Source of the DNA: Nitrospirota bacterium
Lineage (GTDB): Bacteria; Nitrospirota; Thermodesulfovibrionia; UBA6902; JAJYJJ01
DNA: 64,000 bases
Assembly (NCBI GenBank): GCA_021789595.1
Contig: JAJYJJ010000009.1
Location: 1,274-65,273 of the forward strand
Direction of reading: 5' to 3'
Shown in pieces: positions 2,634-63,929 of this stretch. The notes beneath the pieces were generated by a model. The model saw only the letters and a program-made list of their open reading frames with translations. It had not been told where the DNA came from and did not search any database. How positions within the stretch are numbered: the stretch's first letter is position 1; the number at the start of each line of letters is the position of its first letter. A program made the translations under genes and the position numbers.

Positions 2634-3519
2634 GCCGTCAGGCATAACATCACAGGAGGCAATAGTTAAGGTCAGGGATACCCTTGGTGCAAAAAAGGCT
2701 GGACACAGCGGAACGCTTGACCCGATGGCATCAGGCGTCCTTATCGTGCTTCTTGATAAGGCAACAAGGCTGTCAGAGATATTCCTTAATTTTGATAAGG
2801 AATACCTTGCTACAATGAAACTCGGCGAGGCCACAGATACCCAAGATGTGGAGGGAAAGATAATCTCAAAGGTCGAATCCTTTGAGATTAACAGAGGTGA
2901 TATCGAGGCCGTCTTAAAGTCGTTTGTAGGCAGCATCAGCCAGATACCACCCATGTACTCTGCTATAAAACACGAAGGAATGCCGCTTTACAAACTGGCA
3001 AGAAAGGGTATAGAGATTCATAGAAGTCCAAGGGAGGTTTTTATTCATGAGCTTGCTGTTGAAGGGCTAAACATGCCCCTTGTTACTTTCAGGGTAAGAT
3101 GCTCCAAAGGCACTTATATACGCACCCTGTGTAATGATATAGGAATAGCCCTTGGAGTCGGTGCCCATCTGTTTTCGCTTATAAGGACAAAGGTTGGCCC
3201 ATTCACAATAAAGGATGCAGTCGGCCTTGATGAACTTCTAAATAGAGACAGAGGTATTTACAGCATTGACGATGCCCTGTCCTGGATGAAGGAGATAATG
3301 ATAAGGGATGAGGCAATTGTAAAGGTAAAAAATGGCGCTCCTCTCAAGGCAGCGGATGTGGAATATTTTAGTGATGGTATCAAGATCGGTGATAGGGTAA
3401 GGATAAAGGCAGGAGATAATACACTGCTTGCTATAGGTATTATTCAGGAGGACATGCAGTATCCTATCAGGACAGATAAGGTCATCATGGATTATGAAAA
3501 GGATTGTCTCAGGATATGA
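2608..3519 (+). CDS. truB: tRNA pseudouridine(55) synthase
   Basis: 303 aa with TruB catalytic motif 'GHSGTLDPMASGVLIVLLDKATR', followed by a PUA-like C-terminus. Confidence 0.9.
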   Translation: MSLIVNLNKPSGITSQEAIVKVRDTLGAKKAGHSGTLDPMASGVLIVLLDKATRLSEIFLNFDKEYLATMKLGEATDTQDVEGKIISKVESFEINRGDIEAVLKSFVGSISQIPPMYSAIKHEGMPLYKLARKGIEIHRSPREVFIHELAVEGLNMPLVTFRVRCSKGTYIRTLCNDIGIALGVGAHLFSLIRTKVGPFTIKDAVGLDELLNRDRGIYSIDDALSWMKEIMIRDEAIVKVKNGAPLKAADVEYFSDGIKIGDRVRIKAGDNTLLAIGIIQEDMQYPIRTDKVIMDYEKDCLRI

Positions 3520-4808
3520 CAAAAGATACTTCGCCTGTTGTTAACATAAAAACAATGGATATGCTTGGAAGGCCAGAGGTTGTCACTGTGGATGAAGCAA
3601 GAGGAATGCTGCTGTCACAGTTTAATCCTGTCCCGCCACCAAAGATAGAGATGCCAATAGATGACTGCCTTGGCAGGGTTACTGCGATAGATGTCCTTTC
3701 CCCTGAAGACCTGCCCAATTTTTCCCGTTCAACAGTTGACGGGTTTGCTGTTGCTGCATCGGATACATTTGGCGCAACAGAGGCTATCCCTGCCTATCTC
3801 AATATAGCCGCTGAGGTTATCATGGGTAAAGAGCCTGTATTTGAGCTAAGGAAAGGAGAGGTTGCGAGGATCGCTACAGGTGGTATGCTGCCAATAGGCT
3901 CGGATGCTGTTGTCATGCTTGAGCACACCCAAGCTATTAATGAAAAGATCATAGAGGTATTAAGACCTGTTGCCCCTGGTGACAATGTAATCCAGGCAGG
4001 AGAGGATGCAAAGAAAGGGGATTTAATACTCAGTAAGGGACACAGGATAAGACCGCAGGATATCGGAGCACTTGCAGGGCTTGGCATTACAAGCATACCG
4101 GTATATGAAAAACCAAGGGTTGTCATAATATCTACAGGGGATGAGGTGGTGCCTGCCTCAAGTCCAATCAAGACAGGAGAGGTAAGGGATATAAACTCCT
4201 ATAATCTCGCAGGACTCATTACCAAAAGAGGCGGTGTACCGATTAGAAAAGGGATATTGCCTGACAGATACGATGTCATAAAGGCAGTACTGAAGCAGTC
4301 TCTTAAAGAAGCTGATATTGTTACTATTACAGGCGGAAGCTCTGTTGGCGCAAGGGATCTGACCGCAAAGATAATCAATGACCTCGGCAGCCCAGGCGTC
4401 CTGTTTCATGGCGTATCTGTAAAGCCTGGCAAACCGATGATCGGCGGCATTGTTGATGGTAAGGCCGTATTCGGCCTTCCAGGACATCCTGCTGCTGTGA
4501 CTGTATGCTTTGAGCTTTTCATACGACCTGTGCTTGAACTCCTTACAGGTGAAAAAAAGAAGCACTATCGTCACGGAAACAATACAGTAAAGGCAAGGCT
4601 CACAAAAAACCTTGCCTCAAGCAGCGGCAGGGAGGAGCATATCAGGGTTGCCATTGAGGAGAGGGATGGCAAATTGTGGGCAAGACCAATCCTTGGAAAA
4701 TCAGGTCTCATCACTACCCTTGTAAAGGCTGATGGGACAATTGTAATACCATTAAGAAAACTTGGCTTGGATGAAGGTGAAGAGGTTGAGGTCATTCTAT
4801 TTGACTGA
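3504..4808 (+). CDS. moeA: molybdopterin molybdenumtransferase MoeA
   Basis: 434 aa with MoeA N-domain 'RSTVDGFAVAASDT', the MoCF-binding core 'VVIISTGDEVV...ITGGSSVGARD' and a MoeA_C tail. Confidence 0.85.
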   Translation: MSQDMTKDTSPVVNIKTMDMLGRPEVVTVDEARGMLLSQFNPVPPPKIEMPIDDCLGRVTAIDVLSPEDLPNFSRSTVDGFAVAASDTFGATEAIPAYLNIAAEVIMGKEPVFELRKGEVARIATGGMLPIGSDAVVMLEHTQAINEKIIEVLRPVAPGDNVIQAGEDAKKGDLILSKGHRIRPQDIGALAGLGITSIPVYEKPRVVIISTGDEVVPASSPIKTGEVRDINSYNLAGLITKRGGVPIRKGILPDRYDVIKAVLKQSLKEADIVTITGGSSVGARDLTAKIINDLGSPGVLFHGVSVKPGKPMIGGIVDGKAVFGLPGHPAAVTVCFELFIRPVLELLTGEKKKHYRHGNNTVKARLTKNLASSSGREEHIRVAIEERDGKLWARPILGKSGLITTLVKADGTIVIPLRKLGLDEGEEVEVILFD

Positions 4809-4895: not shown

Positions 4896-5228
4896 ATGGA
4901 GATTAAATCAAAGCTCTGGATAGAGGTAGAGGGAGAACCTGTCTTCGGCAGGGGCAGGAGGTTTTTGCTTCAGGCAATAGATAAGTATGGCTCAATAAAC
5001 CAGGCAGCTAAGGAGATAAACATCTCCTACAGAAAGGCATGGGGTTACATAAACGCAATGGAAAAGAGGCTCGGTATCAGACTTGTCGAAAGACAGGCAG
5101 GCGGCAAAAATGGCGGCGGCGCCACTCTCACAAAGGAGGCACGGGAGTTTTTAAAGAAGTATGAGATGATGGAGGAAGGCATAAGGGAGATTGTGGATGC
5201 GAGGTTTAAAGAGATATTTGGCGAATAA
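4896..5228 (+). CDS. ModE N-terminal-domain-only winged-helix regulator (molybdate-responsive family, no Mop/TOBE domains)
   Basis: 110 aa resembling the ModE N-domain ('GRRFLLQAIDKYGSINQAAKEINISYRKAWGYINAMEKRLG'). Lies between moeA and a MoCF-binding gene, and a ModE-box-like inverted repeat sits upstream. Confidence 0.6.
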   Translation: MEIKSKLWIEVEGEPVFGRGRRFLLQAIDKYGSINQAAKEINISYRKAWGYINAMEKRLGIRLVERQAGGKNGGGATLTKEAREFLKKYEMMEEGIREIVDARFKEIFGE

Positions 5229-5319: not shown

Positions 5320-6564
5320 ATGTGTGATGTTCAATGTGATGAGACAAGAAACATCTGGAAAGGTAAAACAGTCCCTGTAACAGAGGCAGTGGGAATGGTG
5401 CTGGCACACGATATCACAGAGATAAGGCAGGATGAATTTAAAGGCAGGGCATTTAAAAAAGGACATATTGTCAGACATGAGGATATAAGCCACCTTCAAA
5501 GGCTCGGCAAGGAACATCTATTTGTTCTAAACATTGCTGAAGACGAGATGCATGAAGACGATGCAGCGTATGCCCTGGCCAATGCCTTGATGGGCGAAGG
5601 CGTTACAATGGAAGGCGAACCAAAGGAGGGCAAGATAAATATTGTTGCTAATAGAGACGGGCTTTTGAAGATCAATAAGGATGCCCTTTTACAATTCAAT
5701 ATGCTCGGAGATGTTATGTGTGCAAGCCTTCATGATAATACCGTGGTAAAAAGTGGCCAGGTTGTTGCAGGCACGAGGGCAATACCGCTGGTGGTAAAAA
5801 GAAGAATAATTGAAGAGGCAATGGCAATTGCAGAAAAAGTTAGGGTAAAAATCCCCCCTTACCCCCCTTTAGTAAAGGGGGGATGGGGATTTGAGGGGAA
5901 TCAGGAGGATTATAAATTTACTGGAATAATTGCAGTTAAAAAAATGAGAAGGCCAAAGGCAGGCATCATTATTACAGGCAATGAGGTCTATTATGGAAGG
6001 ATAAAGGACGCCTTTGCACCGATTATCACAAAAAAGATCGAGACATTTAAAGGGGAAATTGTAGGGATCTACTATGCGCCTGATGATGAGGTTTTCATAG
6101 AGGCGAGATTGAGGGAACTAATAGAGGCTGGAGCTGATTTGCTAATTACAACAGGAGGCATGTCTGTTGACCCTGATGATGTAACAAGGTTTGCCATAAG
6201 AACACTTGGTGCAACTGATATCACATATGGCTCAGCAGTGCTTCCAGGTGCGATGTTTCTGGTCGCGTATTTTAATAAGTTAAAAGTTAAAAGTCAGAAG
6301 TCAGATAAACCCCTTAATCCTCCCATTACTAAGGGAGGACAGGAGGTGGACTCCGGACTCCAAACTCCAGACTCAGAACTGGTGACTATCTTGGGCATCC
6401 CTGCCTGTGGGATGTATCATAAAACTACAATATTTGATTTAATCCTTCTAAGGGTGCTTGCAGGAGAGAAAATCGGGAGATATGAGCTTGCAGAACTTGG
6501 ACATGGCGGATTATGCCTTAATTGCAAGGAGTGCAGATACCCTGTATGCCCATTTGGAAAATAG
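5320..6564 (+). CDS. molybdopterin-binding (MoCF_biosynth / MoeA-like) domain protein carrying two in-frame repeat-element insertions
   Basis: 414 aa with MoeA-like N-region and MoCF-binding core 'GIIITGNEVYYG...LLITTGGMSVDPDDV'. Two low-complexity inserts, 'IPPYPPLVKGGWGF' and 'KLKVKSQKSDKPLNPPITKGGQEVDSGLQTPDSE', are encoded by palindromic repeat DNA. Confidence 0.6.
   Translation: MCDVQCDETRNIWKGKTVPVTEAVGMVLAHDITEIRQDEFKGRAFKKGHIVRHEDISHLQRLGKEHLFVLNIAEDEMHEDDAAYALANALMGEGVTMEGEPKEGKINIVANRDGLLKINKDALLQFNMLGDVMCASLHDNTVVKSGQVVAGTRAIPLVVKRRIIEEAMAIAEKVRVKIPPYPPLVKGGWGFEGNQEDYKFTGIIAVKKMRRPKAGIIITGNEVYYGRIKDAFAPIITKKIETFKGEIVGIYYAPDDEVFIEARLRELIEAGADLLITTGGMSVDPDDVTRFAIRTLGATDITYGSAVLPGAMFLVAYFNKLKVKSQKSDKPLNPPITKGGQEVDSGLQTPDSELVTILGIPACGMYHKTTIFDLILLRVLAGEKIGRYELAELGHGGLCLNCKECRYPVCPFGK
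5848..5892. repeat. 45-bp G/C-run palindromic element (aaatcccccc-tt-acccccc-ttt agt aaagggggg-at-ggggat-tt) inserted in-frame in a CDS
   Basis: Imperfect inverted repeat with a 3-nt loop, seen directly in sequence. Length is a multiple of 3 and the reading frame is kept. Same family as the perfect copy at 61344..61390. Confidence 0.7.
6285..6390. repeat. composite repetitive insertion (direct repeats aagttaaaag x2, gactcc x4) flanking a diverged palindromic element (aaacccc-ttaatcctccc-att-act-aa-gggagg) inside the same CDS
   Basis: Seen in sequence. 'cctcccattactaagggagg' at 6319..6338 is a hairpin of the same style as the 61344 element. The insertion stays in frame. Confidence 0.5.
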
Positions 6565-24159: not shown

Positions 24160-24193
24160 AATACGAACAGGCTGTTTAAAAACCCTGTTGTGT
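24160..24193. promoter_or_regulatory. perfect 12-bp inverted repeat gtgtcattgcga-N10-tcgcaatgacac between the stress gene and the cytochrome operon
   Basis: Seen directly in sequence. No downstream U-tract, so it is either an operator or an RNA hairpin. Confidence 0.35.
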
Positions 24194-24242
24194 CATTGCG
24201 AGGAGCAATTTTCGCAATGACACAATCTATGAGGAGAACATT

Positions 24243-31438: not shown

Positions 31439-32032
31439 ATGTTCTGCACTAAGATTCCGAGACTTATAGAAGATGGCCGTATCATGCTGCGACCTCTTCG
31501 GCTCAGCGATGGCCCATTCTTGAGTAATGGATTAAGAGACGAAGACATTTTGAAGGCAAAGGGGTTAAATAAGCCTGTATCTCCATCATGGTTTTTTATC
31601 TGGTGGTGGTTTAGAAAGACCTATATTTGCCCTTTCTGCATTGAATTGAATTCAATGCCCATAGGATTTATAGGTCTATACAACGTGAGACTCGGTAAAT
31701 CTGCCGAAATAAGTCTGGTGATATTCGACAAAACCTTAAGGAGACAGGGTTATGGGACCAGGGCGTTTAAGCTTTTTGCGAAAAGCCTGCAGAGGCATTC
31801 AGTAGTGGAAAAAATACTCATAAAGATTAAGGCAGATAACCACATTGCACTTTCATTCTGGAGGAAACTTGGTTTTGTGGAGGCAAGTATTTCGAATGGT
31901 ATAAATGGTATAATCAGTATGTCTATGGATTTATTAATGGCCTCAAAAATAGAATTGACACTAATTATAAAATCTCCCCTCGCCCCTCTTTGCCAAAGAG
32001 GGGAAATCCTACCTTTGGCAAAGGGAGGTTAG
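31439..32032 (+). CDS. GNAT family N-acetyltransferase whose C-terminus is encoded by a palindromic repeat element
   Basis: GNAT core 'IGFIGLYNV...RRQGYGTRAFKLF...WRKLGFVE'. The last ~20 codons ('IIKSPLAPLCQRGEILPLAKGG') are read from the repeat at 31968..32044. Confidence 0.55.
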   Translation: MFCTKIPRLIEDGRIMLRPLRLSDGPFLSNGLRDEDILKAKGLNKPVSPSWFFIWWWFRKTYICPFCIELNSMPIGFIGLYNVRLGKSAEISLVIFDKTLRRQGYGTRAFKLFAKSLQRHSVVEKILIKIKADNHIALSFWRKLGFVEASISNGINGIISMSMDLLMASKIELTLIIKSPLAPLCQRGEILPLAKGG

Positions 32033-32044
32033 GAGGGATTTTCA
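31968..32044. repeat. composite palindromic element (aaaatctcccct ... cccctctttgccaaagagggg ... cctacctttggcaaagggagg ... aggagggatttt)
   Basis: Nested inverted repeats with C5/G5-type arms, seen in sequence. Related in style to the 61344 element. Confidence 0.55.
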
Positions 32045-34289: not shown

Positions 34290-35408
34290 ATGGACCGACA
34301 TACGATTCCATTGGGACGCATTCTGGGTATCCCTATTGGACTGGATTATTCCTGGTTTTTGATTTTTATACTGCTCACCTGGACGATGGCCGTTGGCTAC
34401 TACCCGGCTGAATTTAAGAACTGGCCCACGACCCAATATTGGGTCGTGGGCGCGGCGACTGCCATCATGCTGTTTGTGAGCGTACTGCTGCATGAGTTGG
34501 GACATTCGGTGGTGGCGATGCACTACAAAATTCCGGTGCGGAGCATCACGCTCTTTATCTTTGGCGGCATCTCCCTCATTGGCGCCGAACCACCAAACGC
34601 TGCTGCTGGATTCTGGATCGCCATCGCTGGCCCTGTTGTCAGTTTCGTTTTGGCAGTCCTCCTCAGTCTGACGCAGCCTTTCTTCGCAGGTGTCGCCCCA
34701 CTACTGGCCCTGTTCAAATATCTGGTCTATATCAACGTCGCGATAGGCTTGTTCAATCTTATTCCGGGCTTTCCCCTGGACGGTGGCGGTGTCCTTCGGG
34801 CCATTGTCTGGAGTATCAACCACAACATGCGCCGGGCCACCCTCATCGCCGCCAATGTTGGGCGATTCATCGCCTACCTCTTCATCTTCTTCGGTGTGTG
34901 GCAAATATTTGGTGGCAACTTCATCAACGGCATGTGGATCGCCTTCATCGGCTGGTTTCTTGAGAGTGCCGCCAGGGGGCAGGTTCAGCAACTGGCGCTT
35001 CACGATATGCTGGCAGGCCGTAAAGTGTCACAGGCAATGAATCGGCAATACGCAGCCATCCCTGCCGACACTACCTTGCAACACCTGGTGGACGATCACA
35101 TTTTGGGCAGCGGCCGCCGGAGTTTCGTGGTCAAGCGGGGTGATGATGTTATTGGCTTGTTGACCTTACATCACATAAAAGATGTCCCGCGGTCTGAATG
35201 GCCAGTGATGACCACCGCTCAAGCCATGATCCCGATAGAGCAAACGAAACGGGTGCGGCCAGATGAGGAGCTGTGGACAGCTCTGGAAGAGATGGACCGC
35301 GATGGGGTCAATCAACTTCCCGTAATGGTGGATGGGCAAATTCAGGGTATGCTCAGCCGGGAGGATATTATCAGCTATTTGCGCACTCTACGGGAATTCG
35401 GTGCTTAG
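34290..35408 (+). CDS. site-2 protease family (M50) zinc metalloprotease with tandem CBS domains
   Basis: 'HELGH' zinc motif and 'NLIPGFPLDGG', then CBS pair ('VSQAMNRQYAAIPADTTL...', '...LPVMVDGQIQGMLSRED'). A ~105-nt stretch within the gene counts at ~59% GC versus ~40% nearby. The ATG at 34290 is preceded by AAGGAGG. Confidence 0.75.
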   Translation: MDRHTIPLGRILGIPIGLDYSWFLIFILLTWTMAVGYYPAEFKNWPTTQYWVVGAATAIMLFVSVLLHELGHSVVAMHYKIPVRSITLFIFGGISLIGAEPPNAAAGFWIAIAGPVVSFVLAVLLSLTQPFFAGVAPLLALFKYLVYINVAIGLFNLIPGFPLDGGGVLRAIVWSINHNMRRATLIAANVGRFIAYLFIFFGVWQIFGGNFINGMWIAFIGWFLESAARGQVQQLALHDMLAGRKVSQAMNRQYAAIPADTTLQHLVDDHILGSGRRSFVVKRGDDVIGLLTLHHIKDVPRSEWPVMTTAQAMIPIEQTKRVRPDEELWTALEEMDRDGVNQLPVMVDGQIQGMLSREDIISYLRTLREFGA

Positions 35409-52874: not shown

Positions 52875-53726
52875 TTAATAAAACTCCTTCACAGTAGCAG
52901 CTAATCCTGACAGGTCGAAGGATTGCCTTACAAGGGGTTTATCCTTGATTACTGGTATTCTCTCCTCAAATATTGGACGGTTATTGCGATAGATTACACC
53001 AATAGGTATGCGCTGTCCCCATTCAAGGGCCTTTTTAAACGCCTCTGTCCTGTCTTCAGGGTTGTATTCTGGCTCTATGTGATAGACCCTCTGCCTATAC
53101 CATTCATAGGTATTGACTTTATTGAATGTTACACAGGGCTGAAGGATATCAACCAGAGAAAATCCCCTGTGGTTTACCGCCTCTTTTATCAGGCCTTTTA
53201 AATGCACATTATCGCCTGCAAATCCTCTTGCCACAAAGCTGCAGTCAAGGGCTACTGCCAGTGCCATGGGATTGAGCTGCTCAGAAAGGACTCCAAAGGG
53301 CTGATTCTTTGTTGTCATGCCCTCCATACTTGTAGGAGATGCCTGACCCTTTGTGAGTCCGTATATCTGGTTGTCATGCACAAAGAGTTTTACATTGATG
53401 TTCCTTCTCATGGCATGTATTAAGTGGTTTCCGCCCTCGCCATAACAGTCCCCATCTCCAGCAACGGCGATTACAAGCATCTCATGATCGGCAAGCCTTA
53501 TCCCTGATGCAACAGGGAGCGTCCTTCCGTGAAGGCCGTTGAAGGTATTACATTTCAGATAATGGGGGAATTTCCCTGCCTGACCTATTCCGGAGACAAT
53601 GGTAAACTGATAAGGCTCTATGGCAAGCTCCATCATGGCATCTTTAAATGACTTTAATATGCCGAAATTACCGCATCCAGGACACCATGCAGGGTTCTGC
53701 CCTTTATAATCATCTAAGGATGACAT
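52875..53726 (-). CDS. korB: 2-oxoacid:ferredoxin oxidoreductase beta subunit (TPP-binding, KorB-like)
   Basis: 'WCPGCGNFGI' and TPP motif 'AGDGDCYGEGGNHLIHAMRRNINVKLFVHDNQIYGLTKGQ'. Confidence 0.8.
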   Translation of the reverse strand: MSSLDDYKGQNPAWCPGCGNFGILKSFKDAMMELAIEPYQFTIVSGIGQAGKFPHYLKCNTFNGLHGRTLPVASGIRLADHEMLVIAVAGDGDCYGEGGNHLIHAMRRNINVKLFVHDNQIYGLTKGQASPTSMEGMTTKNQPFGVLSEQLNPMALAVALDCSFVARGFAGDNVHLKGLIKEAVNHRGFSLVDILQPCVTFNKVNTYEWYRQRVYHIEPEYNPEDRTEAFKKALEWGQRIPIGVIYRNNRPIFEERIPVIKDKPLVRQSFDLSGLAATVKEFY

Positions 53727-55431
53727 TTAATTCCTTCAATAACCCTTCCAGCGAAAACGGTCTTCCATCGTATTTATTAATCAATCTATTGAAAGTGTAT
53801 CCTGTTTCTGTCTTCATAAGGCGGGCGAACTGTCCTGTTGCATTATTTTCAATGCATAAGGTTAATCCTGCACTCTTCAGTACCTTAATGTAATTGAATT
53901 TAGCTGTGGACGGAAGTGGATAGATCTCACTGAAGTGCAGCATGGCTATACTATAATTCTTTGACAGCTCATCAACCACCTCCTTCATCACTCCATAGGT
54001 TGACCCCCACCCTGTAACTACTATCTCTGGATCAGAATCACCATAAAGAAATGGGGCATCTATCTCTTTTCTGATAAAGGGCGATTTCTTAAACAGTCTC
54101 TTTTGTACCATTTTTATCCTTGTCTCTGCATCCTCAACAATATGCCCTTCTTCATCATGTTCGTCGCTGTCTGTTACAACAAGGTGTTTTGCATCTCCAG
54201 GGACACCTAACAATGACACCCCGCTTTCAGTAAAGGCATGTCTTTTATATTCCCTGAGATCTCTAAATGCCTCGCCCCTTAATCTGTAATCTGTATATTT
54301 AACCCTGCTTAGATCAAACCCTTCAAATGTCCACTGGGAATCAGCAAGGTATTGGTCGGTAAGGATAAACACAGGTATCTGGTATTTCTCTGCTATATCA
54401 AATGCCTTGTTTGTGAGATAGAATGCCTGCTCAGGTGTGCCCGGGGCAAATATTACTCTTGGAAATTCCCCGTGTGCTGTATACAGGGCAAATTGCAGTT
54501 CAGCCTGTTCTGTTCTCGTGGGGAATCCTGTAGCAGGCCCCGGCCTCTGCGCAAGGGCAATGACTATCGGGGTCTCTGTCATGGCAGCCAAGGAAAGGCC
54601 CTCTACCATTAATGCAAAACCTCCTCCTGAGCTCCCTGTCATAGCCCTGACGCCTGCAAATGAAGCGCCCAATGCCATGTTAATGGCTGCAATCTCGTCC
54701 TCTGCCTGTTCAACGATAATTCCGTATTCCTTTGCCTTGCTCGCGATATAGAGCATAATCCCAGTCGAGGGTGTCATTGGATACGCTGAATAGAATTTAC
54801 AACCCGATGCAATAGCGCCAAGTCCTACAGCCTCATTTCCTGCAATTAAAAGTAGGGGCGAACTGCCGTTCGCCCCTACAGAGAATGAACATCGCAAACA
54901 TTCCTTCGCAGCATAATCATGGCCAGCCATAGCAGTATTGATATTCGCCTTTATAATATCTTCACCCTTCTTTTTGAATATATCCTTTATAATTTCAAGG
55001 AGGATGTTCAATTCCATGCCAAGCATGCCTAACACTGCTCCAGTGGCAACGGTGTTTGCCATTATCTTATTTCCGCCATGTTCTACCGCTAAATTGACGA
55101 AGGGGATGTCCACAGAGTTTTGAGTTGAGAGTTTAGAGTTATGACTTTTTGAGTCATAGATTATCTGACCGTATTCTGAAAGCTCTTTTTCATGAAGCAG
55201 TATGCTTTCTTTATCGAGGGCAACCAGGATATCAATAATGTCTCTGCATGCTGTTACAGGCTTGTCAGAAAACCTTATCTGGAAAAAATTGTGACCGCCC
55301 CTTATGCGTGACTCATAATCCTGATGGGTAAATACATGATAACCTGCCCTTGAAAATACCCTCGCAAGGGTGTCTCCAATAGTCTGTATACCCTGTCCTG
55401 CCTCACCGCCTATCTTGATTGAGTAGTCCAA
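53710..55431 (-). CDS. korA: 2-oxoacid:ferredoxin oxidoreductase alpha subunit with fused N-terminal gamma domain (KorA-like)
   Basis: 573 aa. N-terminal gamma-like 'IGGEAGQGIQTIGDTLARV', followed by the pyruvate-flavodoxin-OR-type alpha domain. Confidence 0.8.
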   Translation of the reverse strand: MDYSIKIGGEAGQGIQTIGDTLARVFSRAGYHVFTHQDYESRIRGGHNFFQIRFSDKPVTACRDIIDILVALDKESILLHEKELSEYGQIIYDSKSHNSKLSTQNSVDIPFVNLAVEHGGNKIMANTVATGAVLGMLGMELNILLEIIKDIFKKKGEDIIKANINTAMAGHDYAAKECLRCSFSVGANGSSPLLLIAGNEAVGLGAIASGCKFYSAYPMTPSTGIMLYIASKAKEYGIIVEQAEDEIAAINMALGASFAGVRAMTGSSGGGFALMVEGLSLAAMTETPIVIALAQRPGPATGFPTRTEQAELQFALYTAHGEFPRVIFAPGTPEQAFYLTNKAFDIAEKYQIPVFILTDQYLADSQWTFEGFDLSRVKYTDYRLRGEAFRDLREYKRHAFTESGVSLLGVPGDAKHLVVTDSDEHDEEGHIVEDAETRIKMVQKRLFKKSPFIRKEIDAPFLYGDSDPEIVVTGWGSTYGVMKEVVDELSKNYSIAMLHFSEIYPLPSTAKFNYIKVLKSAGLTLCIENNATGQFARLMKTETGYTFNRLINKYDGRPFSLEGLLKELNVILR

Positions 55432-59087: not shown

Positions 59088-61330
59088 TCAGTCAGTGCCA
59101 CGATCTCTTGTTTCAAGTGTTTTTTCATGGGGCACTGAAAGTGCAAATGCCTTTGATAGTTCCGCCACGGCCTGCATAAACCTTTTCTTTCCATCATCCT
59201 GCAGGAGGATACACTCCATTGCCTCTTTTATAACAGTCAACCTTTCGGCAGGACTGCCGGATAAGAATCTTGAATAGTCAAATCCATGAAACATTGATGA
59301 AACAATCTCATATTTCTCAAGCATTATAGCGACTGCCTCTTCCTGAGGAATGCCTGTCATGTCACGGTCTCTTTCTATGTAATCGGAAAGTGCCTTCTTC
59401 AGTTCATCTGCAATGCCAAGGTAATCAACCACCAGACCACCTGGTTTATCCTTAAATACCCTGTTGACTCTGGCTATTGCCTGCATAAGCCCGTGTCCGC
59501 GCATTGGCTTGTCTATATACATGGTATGAAGACAGGGAGCATCAAAGCCTGTGAGCCACATATCACGCACAATGACAAGTTTAAATGGATGCTCAGTTTT
59601 TTTTGAAAAGGTTTTTGCAAGTTTCTCTCTCTTTGCTTTGTTCCTGATATGCTGCTGCCATTCTACAGGATCAGATGCAGAACCGGTCATAACTACCTTC
59701 AAGAATCCCTTATCATTATCTTTATGATGCCATTCAGGCCTGAGTTTGATTAATGCATTATAGAGATCAACACATATACGCCTGCTCATGCAGACGATCA
59801 TGCCTTTCCCGTCCATAGCCTCAAGCCTTTTCGCAAAGTGATCAATAATGTCTTTCGCCACGAGGCCGATACGTTTTTCTGTCCCGACCATTGCCTCAAG
59901 CTGTGCCCATTTCCGCTTTAGCTTTTCCTTTACATTTATCTCTTCTCCCTCTGTCACTTCTTCAAATTCAGGGTCAATCCTTGGCCTTTCTTCTTCCCCT
60001 CTATAGGCGTACCTGTGAATCCGATAAACGAGGCGTTCGGAAGGGCATCTCTCATATGTCTGGCAAAGCCATCTATGAAGTCATACTGGCTCCTGTGCGC
60101 CTCATCAGCAATAACAATTATATTCCTTCTGTCAGAGAGCTTGGGATAATCCCCTCCTTTTTCAGGCAAAAACTTCTGTATGGTTGTAAACACAACACCG
60201 CCTGATGCGACATTGAGAAGCTTTCTAATATCTTCCCTGCTTCCCGCCTGCACGGGTGTCTGCCTGAGCAGGTCTCTGCACCGTGAAAATGTCCCGAACA
60301 ACTGGTCATCAAGGTCATTGCGGTCTGTAAGAAGAACGATCGTTGGATTCTGCATTTCAGGATGCTGTATTATCTTCCCAGCATAAAATACCATTGTCAG
60401 GCTTTTGCCACTCCCCTGTGTATGCCAGACAACACCAACCCGTTTGTCACCCTTTGGAGATACCGCCTGAATCGTACATTCAACAGCCTTATTTACTGCA
60501 TGGAATTGATGATATCCTGCCATCTTCTTTACAATTTCAGAGCCGTCAATCTCAAAGACAAGGAAGTATCTTAGTAAATCAAGAAATCTCTGCCTTTCAA
60601 AGATTCCCTTAATCATTACCTCAAGTTCAGGAAGACCCTTCGGAGCTAAATCATCTCCTGTTATTGTTCTCCACGGCAGAAACCATTCCCAGTCTGCAGT
60701 CAGAGTCCCTGCCCTTGCCTCTATACCGTCAGAGACAAGGAGGATTCCGTTATAAAGGAAAAGAGAGGGGATTTCTTTTTTGTATGTCTGCAATTGATTA
60801 AATGCATCCTTAACTGTTGCATTTTCGTCAGAGGGATTCTTAAGTTCAATTACACCTAATGGTATGCCATTCACGAAAACAACTATGTCAGGCCGTCTGT
60901 TACTTTGTCCTTCAACAACTGTGAACTGATTAACTGCCAGCCAGTTGTCGTTATCAAGATTGTCGAAATCTATAATCCCGACACTGTCACCAACAATCCG
61001 GCCTTCTGCGTCTTTATATTCAACCTCTATACCTTCAGTAAGCATTTTATGAAACCGATGATTGTTTGCTGCAAGAAGGGGCGATTCGTGAATAATCCTT
61101 GTTAATTTACGGAAGGCATCCTCAATTGCCTCATCTGGAATAGCAGGATTGATTTTCGTTAAAGCAGAACGAACCCTATTCTCAAGAATCACATCGCTGT
61201 AAGATGCCCGTTCAGCAAATAATTCACCAGAAGCAATATCTGGTTCATTGAGAACGGAATACCCCAACCCCTTGAACCAGTCAAGGGCTGCTTGTTCTAT
61301 TTCTGATTCTGTAATAATATTTCTCTTCAT
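59088..61330 (-). pseudogene. hsdR: type I restriction enzyme R subunit (HsdR), disrupted: frameshift at ~59955, internal deletion and truncated C-terminus
   Basis: Upstream ORF (458 aa) has the nuclease N-domain and helicase motifs '[13 protein letters not shown]', '[11 protein letters not shown]', 'GFTGTP'. Downstream ORF (289 aa, GTG start overlapping the first stop as GTGA) resumes at 'WAQLEAMVG' and carries '[15 protein letters not shown]'. About 100 aa expected between motif III and this point are missing, and the usual ~200 aa C-terminal domain is absent. Confidence 0.65.
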
Positions 61331-61343
61331 TTTTCAGTTTCCT

Positions 61344-61390
61344 AAATCCCCCTTAATCCCCCTTTAGCAAAGGGGGATTAAGGGGGATTT
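61344..61390. repeat. perfect 47-bp palindrome aaatcccccttaatcccccttt-agc-aaagggggattaagggggattt (22-nt arms, 3-nt loop)
   Basis: Seen directly in sequence, immediately upstream of the hsdR start. This is the best-preserved copy of the element family seen at 5848, ~6307 and 31968. Confidence 0.85.
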
Positions 61391-63851: not shown

Positions 63852-63929
63852 TCCTTTTTGTGTAAAGCAAAATGCGGATTCGCTTTACACAAAATATTTT
63901 ATGCCCATTCCACTTGTCATAAAATCTCT

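Follow-up and report, generated by a model that had tools for sequence, protein, structure and literature searches.

Two segments of a gene for a MoeA/MogA-like molybdopterin-binding protein (5320..6564), lying in a 64-kb stretch of a Nitrospirota bacterium contig (JAJYJJ010000009.1; the whole stretch analysed is hereafter called the window), are probably small, non-autonomous, dispersed palindromic repeats that settled in permissive loops and are read through as disordered surface loops. An earlier note, made from the letters alone, had described this gene as containing two in-frame, palindrome-like segments; the open reading frame (ORF) is indeed present and both blocks keep its frame; the inserts would be translated with it.

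The 120 best homologues of the host protein were aligned, as were 47 orthologous genes obtained with their DNA from metagenomes. The 120 orthologues are Thermodesulfovibrionales-like and all are full-length (353-448 aa, 96-100% query coverage). Length varies strongly at a linker (site 1) and a turn (site 2). In 27 orthologues from other taxa, which share 40-51% identity with the host protein (the distant locus L199, aligned in part, was left out), site 1 has 3-6 residues, and site 2 has four residues in 25 proteins and eight in two. The window protein has 31 residues at site 1 and 38 at site 2, against 3-6 and 4 in the distant proteins, and therefore about 78 and 102 extra nt, respectively. 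Residue counts within the clade (>60% identity) run from 3 to 66 at site 1 (median 25) and from 4 to 72 at site 2 (median 28), while eight of the 120 close orthologues have at most six residues at each site and several are empty at one or both. Sequence comparison thus shows the segments to be lineage-specific insertions, as the earlier note had expected.

Placement in loops, also anticipated there, agrees with the AlphaFold2 model of the host protein (mean predicted local distance difference test score, pLDDT, 72.9). Site 1 falls between helix 161-176 and strand 204-207, and site 2 in the turn joining strands 312-319 and 354-360. Values of pLDDT below 50 occur only at residues 1-14, 178-199, 280-286, 325-352 and 395-414; both inserts, at the second and fourth of these stretches, are predicted to be disordered loops between well-folded elements.

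The first block (5848..5892) has the DNA sequence AAAATCCCCCCTTACCCCCCTTTAGTAAAGGGGGGATGGGGATTT and the peptide IPPYPPLVKGGWGF, or (K)IPPYPPLVKGGWGF when read from the palindrome itself, AAATCCCCCCTTACCCCCCTTTAGTAAAGGGGGGATGGGGATTT. The 45-bp hairpin proposed for this block holds: as DNA it folds in two steps at −15.5 kcal/mol (z = −3.5), and none of 200 shuffled sequences was as stable. Its outer right arm has decayed to G4. Its left half (5849..5870) differs by three mismatches from the 22-nt arm of a perfect intergenic copy at 61344, an arm with three matches in the whole window versus none expected (100 shuffles); blastn-short aligned the two elements at 88% identity over 33 nt (E = 1e-4). 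No T-tract was found on the sense strand of the site 1 copy, which is therefore unlike a terminator. The 19 nt that follow look, by eye, like a degenerate additional right arm (GAGGGGAATCAGGAGGATT), and a comparable extra arm, AGGGGATTAAGGGGG, follows the copy in locus L330. Predicted tryptic peptides of the junctions and inserts include IPPYPPLVK and GGWGFEGNQEDYK.

The second block (6285..6390; peptide KSQKSDKPLNPPITKGGQEVDSGLQTPDSE) does contain the short direct repeats and the CCTCCC-N8-GGGAGG hairpin (6319..6338) noted earlier, but it is a composite and not one element. As a single palindrome it was rejected (z = −0.5 versus shuffles). Judged from the sequence, heptamer arms form its outer hairpin, and a decayed C/G palindrome is nested at the apex of that hairpin. 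The left-arm heptamers belong to the same family as (GAGTCAG)x5 in orthologue P0040 and (GAGTCAA)n in P0011, and the right arm is complementary to the left in part only. The apical palindrome was matched at 6310..6346 (E = 0.018) by an nhmmer model built without the site 2 copy. Its inner hairpin is weak (z = −1.7), and the inner stem CCTCCC/GGGAGG differs from CCCCCCC/GGGGGGG of P0002 by a compensated change from C-G to T-A. Membership of both blocks in the family of the 61344 copy, as first suggested, thus stands for site 1 but extends only to the inner part of site 2, where the link is weaker (an 11-nt exact match by blastn-short). This tie is backed by the closest orthologue, P0002, since it has a well-preserved inner C/G copy, CCCCCCCTTACTAAGGGGGGG, at the same site 2 position. 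P0011 has the same outer element at site 2 without the inner palindrome.

Comparison of the copies revealed two kinds of element. The C/G palindrome has the layout AAT-C6-N3-C6-TTT-N3-AAA-G6-N2-G6-ATTT, that is, an outer arm AAATC5-6 and, after a spacer, an inner arm C5-6TTT; beyond the 3-nt loop come AAAG5-6, a second spacer and G5-6ATTT. Units measure 44-47 nt, with AAATCC and GGATTT as the ends of all complete symmetric copies (n = 14). In-gene copies follow an asymmetric consensus of 45 nt, or 15 codons (AAT CCC CCC TCA CCC CCC TTT nnn AAA GGG GGG ATG GGG GGA TTT). This coding subfamily is stop-free in two of three frames in either orientation; its consensus predicts NPPSPPFxKGGMGGF in one orientation and NPPIPPLxKGGEGGF in the other, with IPPHPPLxKGGWGDF in the second open frame, and these are exactly the peptides observed in genes. 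Owing to its 15-codon length and open frames, such a copy leaves the host frame in register and open on insertion. Arm complementarity in a DNA palindrome is by itself no sign of selection. The second kind consists of heptamer-armed hairpins such as (GAGTCAG)x5...(AACTCCR)x4 in P0040 and (GAGTCAA)n...TTGACTC in P0011. Many further heptamer-hairpin families occur in the orthologues (fold z from −2 to −6), whose inserts overall reach fold z values of −2 to −8. Nesting of a C/G palindrome within a hairpin recurs at the DNA level, at site 2 of P0002 and of P0059 (z = −4.6), at site 1 of P0007 (−30.9 kcal/mol, z = −8.0) and in RecJ of locus L065.

Further copies, which the earlier note proposed to look for, were found. 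Besides those of the host gene, the window has two more, making four in all. An nhmmer profile built from 18 copies (threshold E < 0.02) gave 17 matches in 353 kb of Thermodesulfovibrionales-like contigs versus none in 676 kb around orthologues of other taxa. Eleven of the 17 are in the focal gene, three are in-frame copies in the FmdE, 4Fe-4S protein and N6_N4 methyltransferase genes, two make up the C-terminal end of an acetyltransferase-like ORF, and the 61344 copy is the only intergenic one, so that 16 of 17 overlap ORFs. A strict core pattern applied to the orthologue loci (935 kb) recovered the window's own two copies only; diverged copies need nhmmer. Pattern matches in public genomes revealed in-frame copies in further genes: two in one for a CbiG/CobJ-like protein, and others in those for RecJ, NagZ, PurL, a radical-SAM protein and a kinase-like protein. 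A single asymmetric consensus, C6-TYR-C6...G6-AT-G6, is common to the MoCF, FmdE, 4Fe-4S, RecJ, radical-SAM, NagZ and PurL genes on different contigs; on this sequence evidence the C/G elements are shown to be one family, with one asymmetric consensus, in unrelated genes and genomes. Searching a set of 5.8 billion proteins with the concatenated 64-aa insert peptides gave two weak matches only.

The 16-base core CCCCCTTTNNNAAAGGGGG is present in at least 120 contigs from genomes of many phyla and likewise in at least 120 viral ones; the phyla and classes include Desulfobacterota, Beta- and Gammaproteobacteria, Ignavibacteria, Omnitrophota, Patescibacteria, Chloroflexi and Myxococcota. Among the cores listed, 79% are accompanied by an outer module (ATC4+ or G4+AT) on one side or both; only 7% of those in genomes and 3% of those in viral contigs have one on both. 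Across phyla, 41% of the listed copies lie inside stop-to-stop ORFs of at least 100 aa, versus 85% of random positions. Similar sequences, unannotated, are found on plasmids of Acinetobacter and of the cyanobacteria Planktothrix, Synechocystis and Microcystis.

Some of these loci are of interest in their own right. The outer modules of the core loci (L002-L121 from genomes, L205-L324 from viral contigs) are AAATCCCCC or GGGGGATTT, and most core copies are asymmetric, with one outer arm, or split in the order hairpin-outer ... outer-hairpin. Viral contig IMGVR_UViG_3300035670_001258 (L275, L208) has at least nine copies. Locus L091 carries, at 4914..5210, an array of tandem units, about 137 nt in period, with two C/G hairpins plus GGGGGATTT / AAATCCCCC modules in each; it is a satellite-like arrangement of core modules. 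The PurL-like ORF of L119 (1404 aa) has four types of in-frame insert, PPTHPSPSRGKGKGEGE, GVQVKRDQSLESLTPRTLESF, SECGMRNAEYSEFRNPKSEF and NPPSPPLEKGGKGEF, and the radical-SAM ORF of L011 (837 aa) has the in-frame repeats NPPIPPLLKGGEGGF and MQDTGYKIQDK...ASCIMHHAS.

Both sites of the host gene are insertion hot spots across the lineage, with more than ten unrelated repeat families each: crude 4-mer clustering sorted the inserts into 16 families with more than one member at site 1 and 11 at site 2. Against this extreme variability of both sites stands an identity of 65-80% in the rest of the protein. In a tree built without the sites, neighbouring proteins are often alike at one site and unlike at the other. 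P0002 and P0022 share 99.4% identity over nt 1-815, but only 79% and 81% in the ~100 and ~60 nt that flank site 2; one of the two has an 84-nt insert there and the other none. This mosaic patch shows that insert states pass between alleles by homologous recombination. Arrays of period 7-8 number 13.2 per 100 kb in the clade loci versus 2.7 in other taxa, and 28 of 41 (counted manually from the listing) fall in the focal gene, which makes up about 33 of the 311 kb, hence a roughly 18-fold enrichment relative to the flanks. Site 1 of P0085 has an internal duplication of VMGIPPSTPPL compared with the otherwise identical P0069 alleles, a change of copy number within an insert. When the window is compared with P0011, third codon positions agree at a rate of 0.39 in the 318 core codons but at 13 of 15 inside the site 1 element, so that the element is either far younger than the divergence of the gene or held constant at the DNA level.

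The two copies outside the host gene differ in kind. The intergenic one folds at −24.9 kcal/mol (z = −7.6) and, by inspection, has stop codons in all three frames; its subfamily differs in this from the open subfamily of in-gene copies. The copy stands upstream of hsdR (59954..61330, minus strand), 13 nt from its start, and has TTTTTT after it on the plus strand. It fits a terminator pattern on that strand only, where no plus-strand gene ends. The copy at 31969..32042 supplies an acetyltransferase-like ORF (31439..32032) with its stop codon and its final ~20 residues (KSPLAPLCQRGEILPLAKGG), a C-terminal extension that looks repeat-derived. All features are collected in Table 1.

Table 1. Host gene, insertion sites and repeat copies in the window (positions of the 64-kb stretch).
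Feature	Position	Strand	Basis and remarks
Host gene, MoeA/MogA-like molybdopterin-binding protein	5320..6564	+	414 aa; ORF list, Pfam PF00994
Site 1 variable linker, aa 171-201	5830..5922	+	Orthologue alignment, AlphaFold2
C6/G6 double-stem palindrome, coding subfamily	5849..5892		44 nt; nhmmer E = 5e-13
Putative degenerate extra right arm, read EGNQED	5893..5911		By eye from sequence
Site 2 variable turn, aa 318-355	6271..6384	+	Orthologue alignment, AlphaFold2, Pfam break
Left arm of outer element, TTAAAAG x3 then AAGTCAG x2, read KLKVKSQKSD	6272..6305		TRF
Decayed C/G palindrome at heptamer-hairpin apex, read KPLNPPITKGGQEV	6307..6348		Orthologue comparison, nhmmer
Right arm of outer element, GACTCCR x3.7 (GACTCCA), read DSGLQTPDSEL	6349..6380		TRF; comparison with P0040, P0011, P0002
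Composite copy, outer arms around two inner hairpins	31969..32042		z = −3.7; nhmmer E = 0.002 and 0.0095
Perfect intergenic copy, C5 subfamily, TTAAT/ATTAA spacers	61344..61390		22+22 palindrome, 3-nt loop

The PF00994 (MoCF_biosynth) match of the host protein covers aa 215-312 (E = 3e-19; 69.6 bits versus a gathering cut-off of 26.6) and profile positions 1-97 of 144, ending a few residues before the second insert; with NCBIfam TIGR00177 the domain match stayed under the family cut-off. Its sequence and fold matches in the PDB are MoeA, Cnx1E, gephyrin E and MoaB. A protein search found 7993 homologues, of which the best-scoring are named Nitrospirae, Nitrospirota or Thermodesulfovibrionales, and the catalytic-domain residues are unchanged across the orthologue set. 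An identical protein is recorded on contig DAHWTN010000018.1 of assembly GCA_027331655.1. The gene adjoins MoeA (3504..4808) and a ModE-like helix-turn-helix gene (4896..5228), and a PD-(D/E)XK nuclease gene is also among its neighbours.

Other repeats were seen in the window. An array of AACTCTN x3.9 (coding strand; 55114..55140), of the family of the site 2 right arm and of SELQTQNSKL of P0002, reads SKSHNSKLSTQNS in frame in the 2-oxoacid:ferredoxin-oxidoreductase-like ORF 53710..55431 (minus strand) and is, going by its sequence, probably a further in-frame repeat insertion. The HsdR-type ORF next to the intergenic copy has 458 aa and matches TIGR00348 at profile positions 1-414 of 674 only; this type I restriction subunit appears truncated or split. 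Three inverted repeats are unrelated to the C/G family: 24188..24225 (14-nt arms, 10-nt gap, perfect), 34424..34451 (14-nt arms, no gap, perfect) and 63856..63894 (16-nt arms, 7-nt gap, 94% complementary). An Rfam scan of the whole window at gathering thresholds gave one tRNA and no match at the elements.

How could such elements have spread? Copies would arise by transposition-like copying from master elements. Genic survival would then act as a filter, letting frame-keeping, stop-free copies persist in tolerant loops. Hairpin apices may be a preferred target, the C/G palindrome being recurrent at the apex of heptamer hairpins, and later change would come from nested insertion, heptamer slippage, decay and allelic recombination. 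Several observations weigh against this account. Eleven flanks showed neither a target-site duplication nor a conserved target motif, and within about 8 kb of the 240 loci that bear the element no transposase was found, nor any other conserved gene. All-against-all clustering of the 8432 ORFs of these loci gave no gene common to the genome loci and no homologue of the REP-associated tyrosine transposase (RAYT; REP, repetitive extragenic palindromic sequence); phage structural genes, among the viral contigs, were the only recurrent ones. A RAYT-like gene does lie just upstream of window position 1 (L001 85..561, on DAHWTN010000018.1), but it has an in-frame stop and is thus a pseudogene, its 64.5 bits fall short of the NCBIfam cut-off (80), and it is not flanked by any C/G palindrome. 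Mobility is thus deduced from dispersal rather than seen. Moreover, the sample consists of contigs around one gene plus pattern matches rather than whole genomes, site 2 as a whole forms no significant hairpin on its own, and the high conservation of the site 1 element at the DNA level could reflect hairpin selection rather than recent insertion.

That last point leads to an alternative which we consider unlikely, namely that the hairpins are selected cis-acting DNA or mRNA signals (for ribosome pausing, mRNA stability or processing, or recombination) that regulate a molybdenum-cofactor gene, the peptides being by-products. Third-position conservation (13/15 against the 0.39 background), the compensated stem change in the site 2 inner hairpin, the location of site 1 exactly at the linker between the N-terminal and MoCF domains, the heptamer enrichment in the host gene and the terminator-like intergenic copy would all suit a signal. 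However, compensated changes in quasi-palindromes can also be produced by hairpin-templated repair without selection. Each site is, besides, empty in eight of 120 orthologues, and inserts are missing from all distant ones; more than ten unrelated families occupy each site, several of them folding no better than shuffles, and many unrelated genes carry the same element, at no shared position and with no shared function. The last observation also bears on an origin in place, by heptamer slippage and template switching with no mobile element, which we regard as quite improbable. Local expansion does occur, as heptamer copy number differs between close orthologues (ISATVRQSDSATATSPI versus ...SPIHPFTHSPI) and P0085 is duplicated internally relative to P0069, and the negative searches of the 11 flanks and 240 loci would fit it. 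It leaves unexplained why one asymmetric 45-nt consensus, including its TYR and AT spacers, appears in unrelated genes of different genomes, why heptamers of the GCGGAAT, GAGTCAG, GGGTCAA, ATGCAGGAT and other families turn up again in PurL, the radical-SAM protein and RecJ, and why the core extends across phyla and viral contigs with the same outer modules in 79% of listed cases.

Variability itself might be what is selected: the sites would be adaptive hypervariable surface loops for which repeats are raw material, possibly with on/off switching by frameshift in the C6/G6 runs. The extreme variability of both sites against a 65-80% identical background, the mosaic alleles around site 2 and the different lengths (4-8) of C or G runs between copies are compatible with this. 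Yet the host is of a cytoplasmic, cofactor-biosynthesis type with no evident partner to drive diversification, the inserts are predicted to be disordered, and no frameshifted "off" allele exists among the 120 orthologues, since all are full-length; we give diversifying selection very little credence. An artefact, whether a misassembled contig, a pseudogene or a wrongly joined ORF, is barely credible. The source is a metagenome-assembled genome, but the intact-frame architecture recurs in more than 100 independent assemblies (NCBI, JGI, ENA, Logan) and 20 metagenome contigs, the catalytic-domain residues are invariant, and the protein is identical in GCA_027331655.1. Dispersed repeats read through in tolerant loops remain the probable explanation.

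Among known systems, the closest parallel to these repeats is the one drawn by the earlier note, to the Rickettsia palindromic elements (RPEs), dispersed palindromes inserted in frame in Rickettsia genes (Ogata et al. 2000, Science 290:347, as summarised in PMC10969869). A 2024 review treats RPEs as the extreme case and a like process in other prokaryotes as merely conceivable (PMC10969869). The parallel is functional: in both, dispersed palindromes of several families per genome lie in frame in unrelated housekeeping genes, with fold-compatible peptides. Here, copies are several (four in the 64-kb window, 17 in the clade contigs), they are in frame in unrelated genes (MoCF at two sites, FmdE, 4Fe-4S, N6_N4 methyltransferase, RecJ, NagZ, PurL, radical-SAM), and the location is predicted to be fold-tolerant (pLDDT below 50 at 178-199 and 325-352). 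Size and host do not carry over. RPEs are ~100-150 bp long and belong to obligate intracellular Rickettsia, whereas the present element has 45 nt and occurs in free-living anaerobic Nitrospirota; moreover, its core is shared by many phyla and viral contigs, one gene has recurrent hot spots at two sites, copies nest at the apices of hairpins, and there are arms of tandem heptamers. Because size, host and distribution differ, it works like an RPE but is not one, a judgement based on these three traits. The phenomenon is RPE-like, and the element family is apparently undescribed. In the library searched, no paper describes in-frame palindromic repeats in Nitrospirota; literature searches on Nitrospirota or Thermodesulfovibrio (MITE, REP, intragenic) found nothing relevant, and searches by element sequence only unrelated primer and barcode papers.

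REP sequences, with their composite forms BIME (bacterial interspersed mosaic element) and REPIN (REP doublet forming a hairpin), are short palindromes mobilised by RAYT tyrosine transposases (PMC3116915; PMC3733652). As short, imperfect, many-copy palindromes they may be comparable to the present elements (20-40 bp, against 44-47 nt in the contigs sampled here), and they resemble them in their doublet or composite arrangements, in receiving insertions of other elements and, given the RAYT-like gene just outside the window, in a possible gene neighbour. However, REPs are mainly extragenic, whereas 16 of 17 clade copies overlap ORFs; they carry a GTAG or CGTC tag (PMC3733652) where the ends here are AAATCC...GGATTT; and no RAYT lies near the 240 loci, the local pseudogene being without flanking copies. 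The MITEs, or miniature inverted-repeat transposable elements, can also make in-frame fusions, as do ERIC, Correia, QMITE1 of Coxiella and the Anabaena MITEs (PMC10969869, PMC5896051). These too are non-autonomous repeats, sometimes with open frames, inside genes, but in them inverted repeats at the termini enclose an internal region, and target-site duplications and a parent insertion sequence go with them, whereas each element here is one 45-nt palindrome. None of the MITE hallmarks looked for (duplication in the 11 flanks, a conserved neighbour gene at the 240 loci) was found.

By analogy, the nearest conceptual relative may be the small dispersed repeats (SDRs) of cyanobacteria. Elhai et al., in 2008, reportedly described them as tens of nt long, partly palindromic, located within tandem heptamers, nested, and with no known enzyme. 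The similar C/G palindromes on the Planktothrix, Synechocystis and Microcystis plasmids and the nesting in heptamer arrays seen here would be points in common. By that description, the present elements differ in phylum, in length (45 nt versus 21-27 nt) and in being mostly genic and in frame. Heptamer tandem repeats as such are known as the cyanobacterial short tandemly repeated repetitive sequences (STRR) and as the TAACTGA repeats of Beggiatoaceae (PMC4679880). They share with the outer elements few-copy 7-nt units, families spread over distant lineages and a transfer mechanism that is not known; they are, however, mostly intergenic direct repeats upstream of genes, whereas here two roughly complementary arrays form the arms of a hairpin in frame inside genes.

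A bolder reading, which we put forward as rather doubtful, is that the C6/G6 palindrome is a pan-bacterial, partly phage-borne family of ultra-small mobile elements that inserts at single-stranded hairpin apices with no need for an enzyme encoded by or linked to the element. One subfamily, 15 codons long and open in both orientations, would have turned translation-proof and would thus colonise coding DNA of Thermodesulfovibrionia about as freely as non-coding DNA, giving housekeeping proteins hypervariable loops that are inherited and recombine.

Only for Rickettsia is it textbook knowledge that palindromic repeats colonise genes in frame; here the same outcome appears in environmentally abundant sulfate-reducing Nitrospirota. 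What is new relative to RPEs is a far smaller element, frame-neutral by its length and open frames, and a nesting that hints at targeting of hairpin apices. In metagenome annotation such inserts inflate and fragment protein families and break Pfam matches, as with PF00994 here. A single conserved gene with two natural hot spots and dozens of alleles may offer a system in which to study element movement, protein tolerance and recombination.

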